Assembly: GCA_025830695.1 (NCBI GenBank)
Contig: GCA_025830695.1_4111.2
DNA from: a phage
DNA length: 64,000 bases
Direction: 5' to 3' (one strand)
The translations under genes and the position numbers were made by a program. The notes under the pieces were generated by a model. It saw nothing but the letters and a program-made list of their open reading frames with translations, did no database searches and was not told the DNA's origin. Position 1 is the first letter of the stretch. The number at the start of each line of letters is the position of its first letter. Below are positions 36,140-53,223 of this stretch, piece by piece.

Positions 36140-36440
36140 TTCAGTACTGAATTTTGGGCGTAACTATGCACCCGGTGGGCTTGAGTCTTTCTCGACTTGA
36201 TGGAACTATTATACAGTACTGGAAAAATAAAGCAATACCCTGGAAGCAAAAAAGTTTTAATTAATTTGCTTGCTATCCTGGGCCGGACTATGGTACTATA
36301 TTTCAGTACTGAGAAAGTGCGTTTACCTGCTAGGGTGCGGGAGTGTATCCTTTTTTTATATCTTGAATTTTGGGCGTAATTCCGCACCCCCTGGGGTATC
36401 CGCTTTCTCGCGTCTATGTAGTAATTATACGCTTTTTCAG
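36140..36440. repeat. two ~90-bp repeat units (ATTTTGGGCGTA...GCACCCGGTGGG...CTTGATG...CAGTACTGG)
   Basis: Units at ~36146-36235 and ~36366-36440; read as minus-strand promoter-leader modules. Confidence 0.5.
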
Positions 36441-36731
36441 GATCAAGTCAATACCTAAAAACAAAATAATTGAAAATAATTTAACGCGTTTAAACGGCCC
36501 GTAAAGCCCTGGAATGATTGGAATGGTGCAAATGTATAGCTTAGGTGTATTAATGCGTTAGAATGCGTCTGAGGCCGTTTTACGGGGTATCGGGATGATT
36601 TGGTGGATTGATTCAGTACTGAATAATAGTACTCCTATATAGAAAGATAGTTCCCCTGGATGGTTGCAGTACTGAATGACAGTTCCCCTATATAGAAAGA
36701 AAACTATTTTAAAAGTACATGTAGAAAGTAC

Positions 36732-36790
36732 TTGCAAACTATGTTTAAAGGCGTATAATGTTTTACATCGAGAGCGGGAACTCTTCCCGC
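36732..36790 (+). promoter_or_regulatory. PeSL-like cassette (TTGCAA-16-TATAAT + stem-loop)
   Basis: TTGCAA 36732-37, TATAAT 36754-59, hairpin GCGGGAA-CTCT-TCCCGC. Confidence 0.65.
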
Positions 36791-36814
36791 TACACTTTAA
36801 GAGAGATTAATACG

Positions 36815-37177
36815 ATGGCGACTCAAATCACTAAAATCATGCTTAACCTGGTAAACTTCCGCGAAGAGATGAAAGGTCTTCCGGCTGAAACTGTAAAAAT
36901 TCACATTGCAGCTTATCGGGAACTTATTGCAATGTTACCGCTTAAGCGTGAACAATACGCCGCTACTTTGATGCTTGATTCAATGATCCATGTAATGATC
37001 TCAAATGATTTGACGATGGTTTATCAGTACATGGGCGAAAATTTCGCGGTGTGTAGTAAACCAGTACCAGGGATGGCAACTACTGAGGAATTGCACGGCT
37101 TAAACTTAAAACAAGATGCATGGGATAATATGCCTCGTTTCCTGGTATGGGCTGACAGTGGCAAAATTTACAAATAA
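36815..37177 (+). CDS. hypothetical protein (120 aa)
   Basis: ATG after AAGAGAG SD; track ORF is promoter-derived extension. Confidence 0.6.
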   Translation: MATQITKIMLNLVNFREEMKGLPAETVKIHIAAYRELIAMLPLKREQYAATLMLDSMIHVMISNDLTMVYQYMGENFAVCSKPVPGMATTEELHGLNLKQDAWDNMPRFLVWADSGKIYK

Positions 37178-37191
37178 GTTTAATAAAGTAC

Positions 37192-37250
37192 TTGCAAACT
37201 ATGTTTAATGGCGTATAATGTTTTACATCAGGTGGGGAATAGTTCCCCAC
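37192..37250 (+). promoter_or_regulatory. PeSL-like cassette
   Basis: TTGCAA 37192-97, TATAAT 37214-19, hairpin GTGGGGAA-TAG-TTCCCCAC. Confidence 0.65.
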
Positions 37251-37270
37251 TATATAAGAGGATTAAAAAA

Positions 37271-37510
37271 ATGGCTAAATCAAAAATGTTCTTAGGTCAC
37301 AAAAACAAAACTCATTGGAATGTAAGCCTTTGGATTAATAACGATGAATCATTATACCGGTTGGCCCAGGACTTTATTAACGATAGCACTAATCGCAATG
37401 ATGCGGCCCGTCATATGATGTTATTTTTAGAACAGACTGGACAAGATAAAACACCGGACGGATTCAAATATAGCACTACTGCGATCCGTGCGGCGATGGT
37501 TGGAATGTAA
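37271..37510 (+). CDS. hypothetical protein (79 aa), paralog of 38509
   Basis: ATG after TAAGAGG SD. Confidence 0.6.
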   Translation: MAKSKMFLGHKNKTHWNVSLWINNDESLYRLAQDFINDSTNRNDAARHMMLFLEQTGQDKTPDGFKYSTTAIRAAMVGM

Positions 37511-37595
37511 TAGAATTTATTTAAAGTACTATCATTTTTTGCGATAGTACTTTATAATAGTGTTTTATTCATACACCAACGATAAGGGCAACAGC

Positions 37596-37859
37596 ATGAA
37601 TATTAAGTATTTTGCGACGCGTGAACAAGCTCGGATCGCCGCACGCCAGGACGGGGCAACGTTTAAAGATATGGGCGTACAATCGGAACGTGGTAAACGT
37701 TGGGCCATTGTAAAGCGTAGTACAGCCAGATCATTACAGTACTGGCTATCAGCTTTAAAAAGTCCTGCTAGTGTATCGCGACGAGTGGTAGAAATAAAGC
37801 TCGACCGTAAGGGGAATCGTGTTACCGTGTACCGTACTAAAAAGATAGCAGTACTATAA
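37596..37859 (+). CDS. hypothetical protein (87 aa), paralog of 48929
   Basis: Shared FATRE..ARI.AR and DRKGNRVTVY motifs. Confidence 0.55.
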   Translation: MNIKYFATREQARIAARQDGATFKDMGVQSERGKRWAIVKRSTARSLQYWLSALKSPASVSRRVVEIKLDRKGNRVTVYRTKKIAVL

Positions 37860-37867
37860 AAAAAGTA

Positions 37868-37926
37868 CTTGCAAACTAAGTTTAAAAGCGTATAATACTT
37901 TATATCAGGTGGGGAATAGTTCCCCA
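37868..37926 (+). promoter_or_regulatory. PeSL-like cassette
   Basis: TTGCAA 37868-73, TATAAT 37890-95, hairpin GTGGGGAATAGTTCCCCAC. Confidence 0.65.
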
Positions 37927-37946
37927 CTAAAGCAAGGAGTAAAAAA

Positions 37947-38177
37947 ATGACCAATATGTATATGACTGAAGTTAAAACCGTAAAAGATACTACCACTAAT
38001 AAAACTACTTACTTACAGCGGATCTGCGGTGTATGGCAACGTATCAGCAAATCAAAGTACTTTAAATTAACATCATATGCCAATCGTTCGGATTCATTCA
38101 GTACTGAAATAAAAGGTAATAAAGTACACCAATACGGCACTTATTATTATTACAGCCTGGACGCGATTGCAGTATAA
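37947..38177 (+). CDS. hypothetical protein (76 aa)
   Basis: AAGGAG SD. Confidence 0.6.
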   Translation: MTNMYMTEVKTVKDTTTNKTTYLQRICGVWQRISKSKYFKLTSYANRSDSFSTEIKGNKVHQYGTYYYYSLDAIAV

Positions 38178-38207
38178 GCAGTTTACAAATCTTTACAATT
38201 GCCGGTA

Positions 38208-38236
38208 TTGACTTATTTTGTCAGTACTGGCATAAT
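38208..38236 (+). promoter_or_regulatory. promoter (TTGACT-17-CATAAT) driving ORF-free leader with CCCATAGGGTGC element
   Basis: No ORF before next cassette. Confidence 0.45.
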
Positions 38237-38351
38237 GTATTCATTGGCAGATAAGCCGTAGCCCATAGGGTGCGGGAGTGTATCTATAGAAAAATTAGTT
38301 TAGTACAGTTACAATTGTGCACCCGGTGGGTTAGCTGTTGTCATGGGGTAT

Positions 38352-38380
38352 ATTATGCCAGTACTTGATAATGCTGTCAA
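38352..38380 (-). promoter_or_regulatory. minus-strand promoter (TTGACA-17-CATAAT), convergent with 38208
   Basis: Reverse complement of 38352-38380; transcript would carry CCCACCGGGTGC. Confidence 0.45.
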
Positions 38381-51828: not shown

Positions 51829-51835
51829 AAAGTAC

Positions 51836-51896
51836 TTGCATTGTAGTTAGATTAACGTATAATGTTTTACATAGAGCGGGGGAATAGTTCTCCCGC
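51836..51896 (+). promoter_or_regulatory. PeSL-like cassette
   Basis: TTGCAT 51836-41, TATAAT 51858-63, hairpin GCGGGGGAATAGTTCTCCCGC. Confidence 0.65.
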
Positions 51897-51914
51897 CAGT
51901 CCGGGAGATACACC

Positions 51915-52181
51915 ATGAACACTATCGAAATCACTATCAATGCACACGTATACGACAACGTAGTACTGCAAACTACTATGACCGCTAATGATACCAGTAC
52001 TTTGCGGAATACCGTTGTAAGTGCTGTATGTGCTGCAATCGGTGATGTAGCCCTGGAAAATGCAGAACACATCAACAACGGTTTCACTATGTGCAAACGT
52101 GATAACGCAAAACATATCATCTTAGAAGGTTACGGCGGTGTAGAATATAATCTTTATATGAAAAAAGTACTTGCAAAGTAA
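51915..52181 (+). CDS. hypothetical protein (88 aa)
   Basis: GGGAGA SD. Confidence 0.6.
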   Translation: MNTIEITINAHVYDNVVLQTTMTANDTSTLRNTVVSAVCAAIGDVALENAEHINNGFTMCKRDNAKHIILEGYGGVEYNLYMKKVLAK

Positions 52182-52227
52182 CTAAAACAAAGTATAATGT
52201 TTTGCATAGGGGGAGATATCCTCCCCC
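52171..52227 (+). promoter_or_regulatory. PeSL-like cassette
   Basis: TTGCAA 52171-76, TATAAT 52193-98, hairpin GGGGGAGATATCCTCCCCC. Confidence 0.65.
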
Positions 52228-52245
52228 ACTAAAAGGAGTACTAAA

Positions 52246-52470
52246 ATGGCTAACTTTGATGAACTGATGCGGGAAGTAGCTAACCTGGCAGAAGAGAAGA
52301 AATCATTCGATTCTATCTATAACACCGCTCATCGTGATTCAGTACTGGCATGTACTCAGGATCAAAAAGATGAACTAATCGCCACATATCATGAAGCATG
52401 GAAGTACTACCGCCAATGGGAGAAAGAAGAAAGCGAGTCTACCATCAACGGCATCAATAATCTAATCTAA
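52246..52470 (+). CDS. hypothetical protein (74 aa)
   Basis: AAAGGAG SD. Confidence 0.6.
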   Translation: MANFDELMREVANLAEEKKSFDSIYNTAHRDSVLACTQDQKDELIATYHEAWKYYRQWEKEESESTINGINNLI

Positions 52471-52488
52471 AGTTTTATTTCAGTACTA

Positions 52489-52517
52489 TTGACATAGCTT
52501 GATAGTACTGATATGAT
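52489..52517 (+). promoter_or_regulatory. promoter (TTGACA-17-TATGAT)
   Basis: Upstream of 52546 gene. Confidence 0.5.
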
Positions 52518-52545
52518 AACTTTACTAACTACAAGGGGAAACATC

Positions 52546-52803
52546 ATGGAACAATTCACACAATATCGGGTAAATCCTCAAGCTATGGCCTACGTAGAAG
52601 ACCATAAAACGTTACCAGTACTGCAACCAGTTAAAGGCCATATCTATCGTGCGATGGCGTGGAGTACTGCCCAGGATGGCTATAAAACCGTTGCCGTTGG
52701 TATGTACTGCGGTAATGGTGAATGGTTTGATCCAAATAATCCGGTAGCAATTAACAGTACTGAAAAAATGAAATGGGCCGACTACATCGAAGATATTTCA
52801 TAA
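52546..52803 (+). CDS. hypothetical protein (85 aa)
   Basis: ATG after AAGGGGAAA. Confidence 0.55.
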   Translation: MEQFTQYRVNPQAMAYVEDHKTLPVLQPVKGHIYRAMAWSTAQDGYKTVAVGMYCGNGEWFDPNNPVAINSTEKMKWADYIEDIS

Positions 52804-52810
52804 AAACTAT

Positions 52811-52871
52811 TTGACAGTACTAACCAGTAATGTATAATGTTTTACATAGAGCGGGGGAATAGTTCTCCCGC
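52811..52871 (+). promoter_or_regulatory. PeSL-like cassette (TTGACA-16-TATAAT)
   Basis: Hairpin GCGGGGGAATAGTTCTCCCGC. Confidence 0.7.
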
Positions 52872-52893
52872 CAATAGTTTGGAGTAAAACATT

Positions 52894-53094
52894 ATGTCTA
52901 TCGCTCTCGCCCTGGTTGAAGTACTGAAAGAAGCTAAAGCCAACCTTATCGATGTACAGATTAAGGAATTGCAAAATGGTTTAATCGGCTGTACTTGTAC
53001 CGCTGGTGGAGCGGCAGACTATCGAGAACACGAATCACTAGAATCGTTGGTCCGGTATCTTACAATCATCGTAGAAGATTGGAGAATCATCTAA
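52894..53094 (+). CDS. hypothetical protein (66 aa)
   Basis: GGAG SD. Confidence 0.55.
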   Translation: MSIALALVEVLKEAKANLIDVQIKELQNGLIGCTCTAGGAADYREHESLESLVRYLTIIVEDWRII

Positions 53095-53111
53095 CAAAAA
53101 AGAATAAAAAA

Positions 53112-53136
53112 GGGATTGACTCCGGTCAGTCCCTTT
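53112..53136 (+). terminator. intrinsic terminator variant GGGATTGACTCCGGTCAGTCCC + TTTG
   Basis: Third copy of this variant. Confidence 0.7.
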
Positions 53137-53223
53137 GCTATTATATACGCATAGACAAAAACTAGCCCACAGGGTGCATAGGTGTATCTAAAATATATAG
53201 TTAATAACGGTGAGTAACTATCT

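Follow-up and report, generated by a model that had tools for sequence, protein, structure and literature searches.

Judging from sequence and its variation, the repeated motif CCCAYMGGGUGC is the part that stays invariant in a family of short structured RNAs that had not been described. The window (the whole stretch of DNA analysed, 64 kb) originates from an Asteriusvirus-like (RaK2-like) jumbo coliphage; all 11 copies of the motif lie inside a direct terminal repeat of ∼19.5 kb (about 35,070–54,590).

A search of the 64 kb with CCCAYAGGGTGCA, allowing at most one mismatch, produced 8 matches versus 0.04 expected from shuffles; a relaxed motif search added copies at 39932 (−; CCCACCGGGTGCC) and 36384 (−). 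All nine positions listed in the first-pass annotation were recovered, at 38262, 44212, 45897, 47904, 50904 and 53166 (+) and at 36168, 38319 and 39932 (−). The annotation was right about the sites; its exact coordinates were off by a few bases because flanking bases had been counted in. Two divergent copies had not been listed earlier: 36384 (−; CCCCAGGGGGTGC), scoring about 25 bits (25.1) under a covariance model, and 36326 (+; CCTGCTAGGGTGC), which is marginal (14.3 bits, E 0.1).

Architecture and distribution of the units

Each copy forms a unit of about 80 bp that contains no ORF and has its own strong promoter; the earlier description, which put the motif just behind a promoter in a module free of ORFs, proved true for all copies. 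The promoter is of the sigma-70 type (TTGACW-16..18-TAnnnT) with a predicted start at ‘CAT’. Among the 75 unique promoter-linked copies of our first collection (from the window and related phages), promoter and core had the same orientation in 75/75, with the −10 hexamer ending 20–30 nt upstream of the core. Ordinary gene promoters of the repeat also occur in recurring promoter-plus-hairpin units.

The transcribed part begins with a 5′ hairpin, P1 (3–5 bp, variable in sequence, with a purine-rich loop). Next come a CUAR linker, the core CCCAYMGGGUGC, five bases that are mostly purines and a tail UNYRUCY. Ten core positions are invariant, and the two central ones are free (CA, UA, CC, UU, UC). 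The 30-nt consensus proposed earlier describes one subtype only; the part common to all is the core, 5 nt and the tail.

Covariation analysis over the copies, as suggested in the first-pass annotation, gave a clear signal for P1: pairing reached 89%, and 133 cells had changed on both sides (matched by 0/500 shuffles; slid registers 26–53%). Pairs were counted in a model-fitted alignment whose seed had been picked for a P1 of 4 bp; this inflates the pairing percentage but not the stem diversity. At least 15 distinct P1 stems exist, and the four column pairs with the highest mutual information in the whole alignment are precisely the four P1 pairs. The tail opposite G/U varies by transitions only (89% paired versus 28–59% in slid registers). 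Together with the G.U pairs in P1, this variation fits pairing on the transcribed strand only. The GGGU of the core has two alternative partners: upstream RCCC, forming P2 (4 bp, 97–98% paired, with CCU/AGG compensation), or, as GGGUGCR, the downstream tail, forming hairpin H-b. P2 is thermodynamically preferred over H-b; evolution keeps both pairings. Counting against a structured RNA, an individual copy is predicted to fold about as well as its shuffled versions (z about 0), and P2 has only 4 bp.

The motif search in related phages that had been proposed yielded 107 matches to the covariance model, 90 of them distinct, exclusively in RaK2-like phage loci; the phages infect Escherichia, Klebsiella, Salmonella, Cronobacter, Pectobacterium, Erwinia and Yersinia. 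The family is conserved over at least six host genera and restricted to terminal repeats, with about ten copies per repeat. The model had zero matches in 50 kb of non-repeat genome, in chance-match loci and elsewhere between 30 and 60 kb of the window. No Rfam family matched, bacterial genomes yielded no counterpart (none among 185,579 species carried the motif in an array), and the family was unmentioned in the literature searched.

The eleven copies in the window

The first unit (36156–36235, −; 46.2 bits) has −35 TTGCTT at 36230–36235 and −10 TATAAT at 36208–36213; its RNA consists of P1 AGUC-GAGAAA-GACU, core CCCACCGGGTGC (36168–36179) and tail TACGCCC (36156–36162). It runs leftward and faces the repeat's left end; no ORF lies downstream.

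The marginal second copy (36270–36357, +) and the divergent third (36372–36451, −, leftward) form the second convergent pair of the window. Copy 2 has −35 TTGCTA (36270–36275), −10 TACTAT (36294–36299), P1 GUACU-GAGAA-AGUGC (36306–36320), its core with a compensatory CCU/AGG change (36326–36338) and tail TGTATCC (36344–36350), then T7 (36351–36357); a terminator-like stretch spans 36332–36351, and the predicted GGGUGC/tail hairpin with its U-run reads as an intrinsic terminator. Copy 3 has −35 TTGACT (36446–36451), −10 TATAAT (36424–36429), P1 CGC-GAGAAA-GCG, core at 36384–36396 and tail TACGCCC (36372–36378).

Copies 4 (38208–38285, +; 51.2 bits) and 5 (38307–38380, −, leftward; 26.2 bits) are convergent, with a gap of 45 nt between cores; both promoters noted earlier, 38208–38236 (+) and 38380–38352 (−), are present. 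The former has −35 TTGACT (38208–38213), −10 (TG)gCATAAT (38231–38236), P1 UGGC-AGAUAA-GCCG, core CCCATAGGGTGC (38262–38273) and tail TGTATCT (38279–38285). The latter, with −35 TTGACA (38375–38380) and −10 CATAAT (38352–38357), has a short A/C-rich 5′ part with weak P1, core CCCACCGGGTGC (38319–38330) and tail TGTAACT (38307–38313).

Copy 6 with its terminator (39873–40000, −, leftward; 38.2 bits) would give an RNA of about 100 nt. After −35 TTGACA (39995–40000) and −10 CATAAT (39972–39977) come P1 GAC-GAAACA-GUC, core CCCACCGGGTGC (39932–39943), tail TCCGTCT (39920–39926), an AGTAC box at about 39904–39908 and the hairpin GGGGATC-AATC-GATCCCC (39873–39892), common to this copy and the convergent gene 39616–39867.

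The five remaining copies are on the plus strand. Copy 7 (44150–44235; 62 bits) has −35 TTGACT (44157–44162) overlapped by a terminator-like hairpin (44150–44177), −10 TATTAT (44180–44185), P1 UGAG-AGAUAG-CUCA, core CCCACAGGGTGC (44212–44223) and tail TGTATCT (44229–44235); the promoter of gene 44369–44710 is next. Copy 8 (45840–45920; 37.6 bits) has −35 TTGACA (45840–45845), −10 (TG)gCATAAT (45863–45868), P1 GACG-AGAA-CGUC, core CCCATAGGGTGC (45897–45908) and tail TGTAACT (45914–45920), with a GATC cluster and a DksA/TraR-like gene (46167–46424) downstream. Copy 9, of a short type (47847–47927; 36.1 bits), has −35 TTGACT (47854–47859) overlapped by hairpin 47847–47874, −10 TATTAT (47877–47882), an A-rich 5′ part with weak P1, core CCCACAGGGTGC (47904–47915) and tail TGTATCT (47921–47927); a Chi octamer starts at 47935. 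Copy 10 (50842–50927; 65.1 bits) has −35 TTGACT (50849–50854), also overlapped by a hairpin, −10 TAATAT (50872–50877), P1 UGAG-AGAUAA-CUCA, core CCCACAGGGTGC (50904–50915) and tail TGTATCT (50921–50927). Copy 11, again of the short type (53109–53189; 40.4 bits), has −35 TTGACT (53116–53121) overlapped by hairpin 53109–53136, −10 TATTAT (53139–53144), P1 UAG-ACAAAAA-CUA, core CCCACAGGGTGC (53166–53177) and tail TGTATCT (53183–53189); a Chi octamer starts at 53224.

Gene context and competing explanations

In 34/80 copies the unit has no terminator and runs, co-directionally with genes, into the next gene promoter. Two copies from related phages (L039_12617+ and L075_2074+) directly form the 5′UTR of a 178-aa ORF; together these observations mean that the element can double as an mRNA leader. 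The main rival reading is a promoter-proximal cis-acting leader, in which nascent RNA (a boxB-like P1 plus a conserved single-stranded box) would act on its own polymerase or transcript, possibly through processive antitermination, regulated pausing or an attenuator that switches between P2 and H-b, governing read-through of early transcription in the terminal repeat. The lambda nut, rrn boxB-boxA(-boxC) and HK022 put elements are promoter-proximal RNA elements heading early transcription units; they share with the family a hairpin with a free stem and purine-rich loop adjoining a short conserved box. Besides the two 5′UTR copies and the co-directional ones, the fixed promoter distance and a link to homologues of gene 44369–44710 retained in three genera agree with such a role, as do the copies at 44212, 47904, 50904 and 53166, which begin right behind a terminator-like hairpin, every 1.7–3 kb, in gene direction. 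The mutually exclusive helices share GGGU, H-b plus U7 makes a terminator in one copy, and in about 60% of copies G8G9..U18G19 agrees, by inspection, with GGN8YG, the elemental pause consensus. However, downstream genes are absent for about a third of copies (leftward, convergent or with a terminator within 40 nt), so only a gene-independent role suits all of them; a strong terminator directly behind an antiterminator would be pointless. Every gene of the repeat has its own consensus promoter, the U-tract after H-b is missing in most copies, and, unlike the known systems, the family shows by eye no boxA-like sequence and has ten copies per repeat on both strands. We regard the cis role as possible but rather unlikely.

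The first-pass annotation placed the motif ‘often’ between convergent promoters, which overstated the case: convergent pairs hold 4/11 copies here and 22/80 family-wide. The antisense pair it offered as one option applies to these pairs and, since only they qualify, not as a general role. Base-pairing regulators, with the core or single-stranded CUAR-CCCA as a seed for host or phage RNAs and convergent copies as sense/antisense duplexes, would suit the bacterial-sRNA-like layout (5′ hairpin, conserved single strand, 3′ hairpin/terminator), the complementary read-through RNAs that convergent pairs would give, for which stable hairpins are predicted (−38 and −27 kcal/mol, z about −4.4), and the quantised spacing (45-nt gap in 10/17 unique pairs). 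But the free central core positions would put mismatches mid-seed, apart from the opposite-strand copies neither the window nor 82 kb of a related genome contained a complementary site, pairs make up only about a quarter of copies, and a terminator ending in a U-tail is missing from most of them. We regard base pairing as improbable.

The exactly spaced pairs also make up imperfect palindromes of ∼70 bp, centred on a 21-bp spacer rich in AT, as might suit a transcription-coupled DNA element: an R-loop-type replication origin consisting of a promoter and an element behind it (like T4 oriF/oriG), an ops-like non-template-strand signal that is read in the transcription bubble or a DNA–protein site. 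The restriction to the terminal repeat, with Chi sites and a GATC cluster near, and the 12-nt block, about the size of the ops element, point the same way. Yet the covarying P1 stems with their G.U pairs, and a tail that varies by transitions only, indicate that selection acts on the RNA strand; the strict promoter-relative orientation is unexpected of a duplex binding site, the core is non-palindromic, and convergent transcription would presumably overwind the spacer, not melt it. We consider a DNA element quite improbable.

Highly improbable, in our view, are recombination or shuffling cassettes in which the promoter is the only function and the block is kept by gene conversion. The terminal repeat is strongly mosaic among related phages, the modules are short repeats separating gene blocks, and promoter-plus-hairpin units recur at ordinary promoters. 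Such cassettes would parallel promoter-early stem-loop (PeSL) cassettes of T4-type phages, reportedly described by Arbiol et al. in 2010: a repeated early promoter plus stem-loop, scattered in a hyperplastic region of small early genes. PeSL cassettes, however, lie directly upstream of ORFs with no invariant box, while the family has ORF-free units with a 12-nt core and tail; the ordinary gene promoters of the repeat with 5′ hairpins are the better PeSL analogue. Moreover, ten core positions are invariant over at least six genera while stems and spacers diverge freely, the reverse of what whole-cassette conversion predicts, and each of the ancient paralog classes, which have distinct P1, has been kept across genera. 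Paralog similarity is confined to at most 65 nt on either side of the core; therefore duplication of neighbouring genes, the explanation named earlier, does not account for the copies.

Candidate early RNAs acting in trans

Of the three options first offered, the small-RNA family is favoured: it agrees with promoter coupling and orientation, P1 covariation, wobble-compatible tail variation and intrinsic terminators at a constant 34–40 nt behind the core in at least 10/80 copies. Tentatively, we read the units as immediate-early small RNAs: host RNA polymerase would make them, and they would act in trans by way of the invariant core, probably bound by protein; trans action appears to be the most likely mechanism. 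Ten invariant bases imply base-specific recognition, so the protein-binding site suggested earlier is plausible on RNA, though unlikely on double-stranded DNA.

Two known types of RNA invite comparison. Racr RNA anti-CRISPRs, or solitary CRISPR repeat units in phages, which Camara-Wilpert et al. are said to have described in 2023, are likewise short promoter-driven phage RNAs around a repeat-sized conserved hairpin, with the logic of a decoy for a host protein; in contrast, the core is dissimilar by eye to the hosts’ type I-E/I-F repeats, and the I-F hairpin has a 5-bp stem and 5-nt loop versus 4 bp and 3 nt in the family. CsrB/RsmZ similarly present, for protein titration, many copies of one short motif in small hairpins in abundance, but on one RNA, whereas in the family some ten separate transcripts would share them out; GGA occurs in only about half of the family copies and is not conserved.

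A precedent by analogy for the trans small-RNA reading comes from the related jumbo phage PA5oct, which depends on host RNA polymerase and produces abundant non-coding RNAs from highly transcribed regions of its terminal repeat (PMC7318152). Both sets lie in ORF-free stretches of a long terminal repeat. PA5oct ncRNA001 and ncRNA002 are single-copy, 236 and 451 nt long, with no known promoters reported (PMC7318152), and neither matches the family in sequence or structure (best 9 bits, E 0.36).

Given their place in the terminal repeat and their host-type promoters, the units are probably transcribed by host RNA polymerase as soon as the DNA has entered. Each repeat would then yield roughly ten related RNAs of about 50–105 nt, whose 3′ ends may be set by an intrinsic terminator 34–40 nt past the core, by H-b plus a U-run or by the convergent partner, with no fixed 3′ end where the next gene promoter follows. 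The core, displayed between P1 and the 3′ structure, would serve as a base-specific site for a candidate host or phage protein, which the phage may thus titrate or recruit early in infection.

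Modules and their setting in the terminal repeat

The motif occurs eight times in the window against 0.04 matches expected. All nine copies listed in the first-pass annotation were found again, and two further divergent copies, 36326+ and 36384− (named by core start and strand), make up a second convergent pair. Each copy lies in an ORF-free module with a promoter of the form TTGACW, a spacer of 16–18 nt and TAnnnT, frequently with an extended −10 TG. Transcription probably starts about 6 nt further on, at a conserved CAT, which is followed by a 5′ hairpin (P1), a CUAR linker, the core CCCAYMGGGUGC, five mostly purine bases and the tail UNYRUCY, right after which conservation ends. 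The end of the −10 hexamer is separated from the core by 20–30 nt in all 75 unique promoter-linked copies of the set first collected.

In the leftmost 5 kb of the terminal repeat the copies point leftward or are paired; the remaining five point rightward, co-directionally with genes. Four of the rightward copies (44212, 47904, 50904 and 53166) have their −35 hexamer within the terminator-like hairpin at the end of the gene before them. These hairpins, AAAGGGATTGAC-TCCG-GTCAGTCCCTTT at 44150–44177, 47847–47874, 50842–50869 and 53109–53136, hold the −35 of the next module in the 5′ arm and are a compact terminator/promoter overlap; their arms covary between copies and genera, G·U pairs included. 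Likeness between paralogs extends for at most 65 nt to the left or right of the core. The copies are therefore not explained by duplication of neighbouring genes, an origin that the first-pass annotation had named as refuting its reading. The units do not match PeSL shuffling cassettes, given the same limit on similarity; they are ORF-free, with an invariant core and diverging stems.

BLAST searches of 36,000–40,200 and 34,000–56,000 against GenBank phages group the window with the Asteriusvirus jumbo coliphages PBECO4, 121Q, phAPEC6, G17 and vB_Ec-M-J, which it matches in mosaic pieces of 88–99% identity. The matching stretch of the vB_Ec-M-J record is annotated as a direct terminal repeat of 21,525 bp; by offset to this record, the terminal repeat of the window would span from ∼35,070 to ∼54,590. 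The same set of copies is present in vB_Ec-M-J, syntenic and entirely within the terminal repeat, with zero copies in the next 60 kb beyond it. Terminal repeat annotation also covers the matched region in Muenster and CBB, and in the CBB record, where both repeat copies are present, the matches form two identical sets.

Small genes within the terminal repeat have a consensus sigma-70 promoter apiece; outside it, genes overlap and are arranged in operons. Nearly every small repeat gene follows one cassette design: AAAGTACTTGCAA-16-TATAAT, a G/C-rich 5′UTR hairpin (e.g. GGTGGGGAATAGTTCCCCAC) and a ribosome-binding site (36720–36790, 37180–37260, 37860–37930, 38415–38490, 39560–39640, 40020–40100 and most other repeat genes). 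Many of the cassette promoters are perfect 12/12 sigma-70 consensus matches, and the cassettes resemble the promoter-early stem-loop cassettes of T4-type phages. An RNA-binding partner was sought by Pfam scan in ten repeat-encoded proteins; the matches were just a DksA/TraR C4 zinc-finger protein (46167–46424, E = 1.5e-10), a GNAT acetyltransferase (46488–46844, E = 4e-9) and a weak, sub-threshold protein-kinase-like match (50189–50830). These genes are consistent with the terminal repeat being a host-takeover region.

Several other sequence features mark the same region. Its ORF-free left end (35800–36000) has a decayed-looking partial copy, TTTTGGGCGTAGTTACCCTGGATGG, at ∼35811 and tandem-like GGCTAAACGGCTAGA / GGACGGCTAAACGG repeats at 35890–35990. 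Chi octamers (GCTGGTGG) occur ten times on the plus strand, nine of them within the terminal repeat, against an estimated ∼0.2 expected, and twice in the opposite orientation (sites at 35663–35682, 41529, 41591, 45554, 47016, 47935, 50010, 51425, 53002, 53224 and 10710). The sites at 35663–35682 form an inverted back-to-back pair close to the left boundary of the repeat, and in related phages Chi frequently lies inside the 17-nt spacer of module promoters. The enrichment suggests that the genome ends are shielded against RecBCD. GATC is enriched throughout the terminal repeat as well, with four sites in ∼45 bp (45925–45975) directly behind copy 45897+ and ahead of the DksA/TraR-type gene.

The palindrome AGTACT has 275 occurrences in the 64 kb, densest at 32,000–56,000, versus ∼22 estimated from base composition; CAGTACTG occurs 59 times in the window. 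AGTACT is placed just ahead of the −35 in gene promoters (AAAGTACTTGCAA), within the spacer of module promoters (CAGTACTGGCATAAT) and, in most RNA copies, 7–17 nt past the tail. Of 80 copies, 48 have an AGTAC box no more than 35 nt from the tail, versus 23% of random windows. The palindrome may serve as a site of regulation, protein binding or modification that is specific to the phage.

Distribution of the element

Two scans, one of 2.9 million viral contigs and one independent of the tail, located the element only in contigs of ∼345–378 kb and in metagenomic fragments of similar phages. By BLAST it is present in RaK2-like phages of Escherichia, Klebsiella, Salmonella, Cronobacter, Pectobacterium and Erwinia, where its region has no annotation or is called ‘hypothetical protein’. 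Nothing was found in the literature searched on the motif strings, nor on transcriptomics or small RNAs of RaK2-like phages.

Among 185,579 bacterial and archaeal species (one genome each), a scan that demanded the canonical tail, and that diverged repeats would escape, gave 32 isolated matches in unrelated taxa. None of them had a promoter or P1, none was in Enterobacterales and no arrays were seen. By our estimate this number is close to chance, so the scan points to no host counterpart and to no CRISPR array with the motif as its repeat. A CRISPR repeat or RNA anti-CRISPR was rejected on the same grounds, the motif with its canonical tail being in no array of the scanned genomes. Compared by eye with the host type I-E and I-F repeats, the core hairpin seems to differ in stem and loop sizes, with ∼11/19 identities to I-F. 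BLAST of one module against 5,426 E. coli genomes, a weak search for a 61-nt query, returned nothing.

Secondary structure

With ten real copies as its seed, a covariance model produced 107 matches (90 distinct). In the model-derived alignment P1 is 89% paired, a percentage inflated by fitting the alignment to the model and by picking the seed for a 4-bp P1, and 133 cells are changed on both sides. None of 500 shuffles reached the observed level of pairing, and slid registers gave 26–53%. The diversity of stems is not inflated: at least 15 different ones were seen, with loops AGAUAA, GAGAAA, GCGAAA and AGAACAA. When all column pairs were ranked by mutual information without supervision, the four P1 pairs took places 1–4 and nothing else was detected. 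‘Short’ copies (e.g. 47904 and 53166) retain just an A-rich stretch that has a stem of 2–3 bp.

The core has ten invariant positions in the 75 copies first collected, and its CCC/GGG pairs are nearly unchanged across all 90 distinct copies. Two alternative pairings involve it. P2, in which GGGU pairs with the upstream RCCC, is 97–98% paired; the base ahead of CCC is A or G, both able to pair with U, and a CCU/AGG compensation exists in one related locus (L016_4094) and in copy 36326+. H-b, in which GGGUGCR pairs with the tail, is 89% paired versus 28–59% in slid registers. Classical covariation is not possible in either helix because one strand never varies. Tail positions that face G or U show almost exclusively transitions, the pattern permitted by wobble pairing on the RNA strand. 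P2 is thermodynamically dominant (mean pair probability 0.61 versus 0.18 for H-b), and the fold of individual copies is no better than that of shuffles. In copy 36326+ and several relatives a U-run comes after H-b, and the helix reads as an intrinsic terminator. A pseudoknot or closing helix that would join the tail to the P1 loop or to the 5′ end was rejected: ViennaRNA paired AGAUA/UAUCU or AUAGA/UCUAU in some copies, not generally and without covariation.

Taken from sequence comparison, two conclusions are well supported: that this is a structured RNA element, not described before, which is coupled to a promoter and selected on the transcribed strand, and that its multiple copies are restricted to the terminal repeat of RaK2-like phages.

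Genomic context and candidate functions

The context of 80 unique copies was tallied. For 34 of them the next feature is the promoter of a co-directional gene, 22 sit in convergent pairs, at least 10 have a terminator hairpin behind the core that starts at a constant 34–40 nt, and 14 have other contexts. Copy 39932− belongs to the terminator group, with a predicted RNA of ∼100 nt. Spacing in the convergent pairs is quantised: 10 of 17 unique pairs, from several genera, have a gap of exactly 45 nt between their cores, and the 21-nt spacer of these pairs varies in sequence. In related loci, pairs with gaps of 56 or 63 nt have a palindrome, (G)AATGATAATCATT(C), between both tails (L002 2792–2871 and 8050–8136, L005 1248–1334, L008 305–393, L030 3082–3168 and L039 6060–6139); it is identical to the middle 13 bp of the Fur-box consensus of E. 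coli. A general link to Fur was rejected, this palindrome being absent beside the copies of the window.

The main rival explanation is a cis-acting leader of nut/put-like or attenuator type. Such a leader is attractive for rightward copies at the head of transcription units. A 178-aa ORF has the element as its direct 5′UTR in two related contigs, and in three genera a copy is located upstream of homologues of the gene at 44369–44710, with unlike P1 stems. P1 also has the boxB-type trait of nut and rrn leaders, covarying stems with purine-rich loops. The boxA consensus of these leaders, CGCUCUUUA / UGCUCUUUAACAA, is missing from the conserved columns of the copies. As to operon-head placement as in nut/rrn, 34 of the 80 copies are co-directional with genes, 22 are in convergent pairs and at least 10 have a terminator and then no gene. 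A cis-acting leader gives no account of orphan copies with a terminator straight after, and we consider it less likely than a trans-acting role. A riboswitch would combine a conserved aptamer and an expression platform with a recurring kind of downstream gene; the copies show an invariant core and alternative pairings, and the genes behind them are small unknowns and are frequently missing.

Known RNA classes did not match. Rfam 15 gave zero matches in the whole window at gathering score and, at E ≤ 10 over 36–54 kb, six weak matches, none overlapping a copy; ARAGORN found no tRNA or tmRNA genes in the window. A Rho-independent terminator with a U-tail, as in Hfq-dependent small RNAs, follows a minority of copies (e.g. 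39932−, L003_9801−, L003_2733− and L033_2621+). A type I toxin–antitoxin or antisense pair was rejected, the modules having no plausible ORF and just 4 of the 11 copies being paired; ORFs 36088–36387(−) and 36197–36379(+) merely cover repeats and are unannotated in the related record. Also rejected were a CsrA-type decoy (GGA is not conserved), a leader peptide or small ORF (SD-like purines have no conserved start codon after them) and readings of the tail as a Tus/Ter-like site or a sigma-70 −10-like hexamer, each of which fits few copies only. The only experimental precedent that we found is PA5oct, a related jumbo phage with abundant non-coding RNAs expressed from its terminal repeat (PMC7318152); no homology of the copies to these RNAs was detected.

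Since a third of the copies have no downstream gene, only a trans-acting role fits all of them. Ten absolutely invariant bases beside freely changing stems argue for base-specific recognition, most simply by a protein. For both reasons we tentatively favour early trans-acting small RNAs with the core as a putative binding site; host RNA polymerase would make them immediately upon infection. The first-pass annotation had left a choice between a small-RNA family, an antisense pair and a protein-binding site, and the first is best supported; the motif itself is real. Base-pairing, DNA-level and recombination-cassette readings are less likely. The family is new as a family, and its copy number and placement are unusual.

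A bolder and rather improbable proposal is that the RNAs serve as a host-takeover or anti-defence device, aptamer-like, whose invariant core would sequester a host protein (e.g. an RNA chaperone, a nuclease or a sensor of a defence system) or even a nucleotide used in signalling. Driven from about ten promoters in each repeat, twenty in the genome, the small RNA would swamp the cell minutes after DNA entry, a logic akin to that of RNA anti-CRISPRs or protein ‘sponges’. If true, this would define a new RNA class conserved in all RaK2-like jumbo phages.

RaK2-like jumbo phages are being isolated and have been proposed for therapy; to our knowledge, >80% of their genes, and the whole of their non-coding content, await characterisation. 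The RNA family described here is deeply conserved in phages of at least six host genera, has about ten copies per terminal repeat, lies in the part of the genome that resembles a host-takeover region and is annotated nowhere, or wrongly as ‘hypothetical protein’. The covariance model lets these RNA genes be annotated and helps to find terminal repeats in unoriented assemblies. If made as predicted, the RNAs would count among the earliest and most abundant products of the phage in the cell, and the 12-nt invariant core would offer a handle on what a jumbo phage must first neutralise or recruit.
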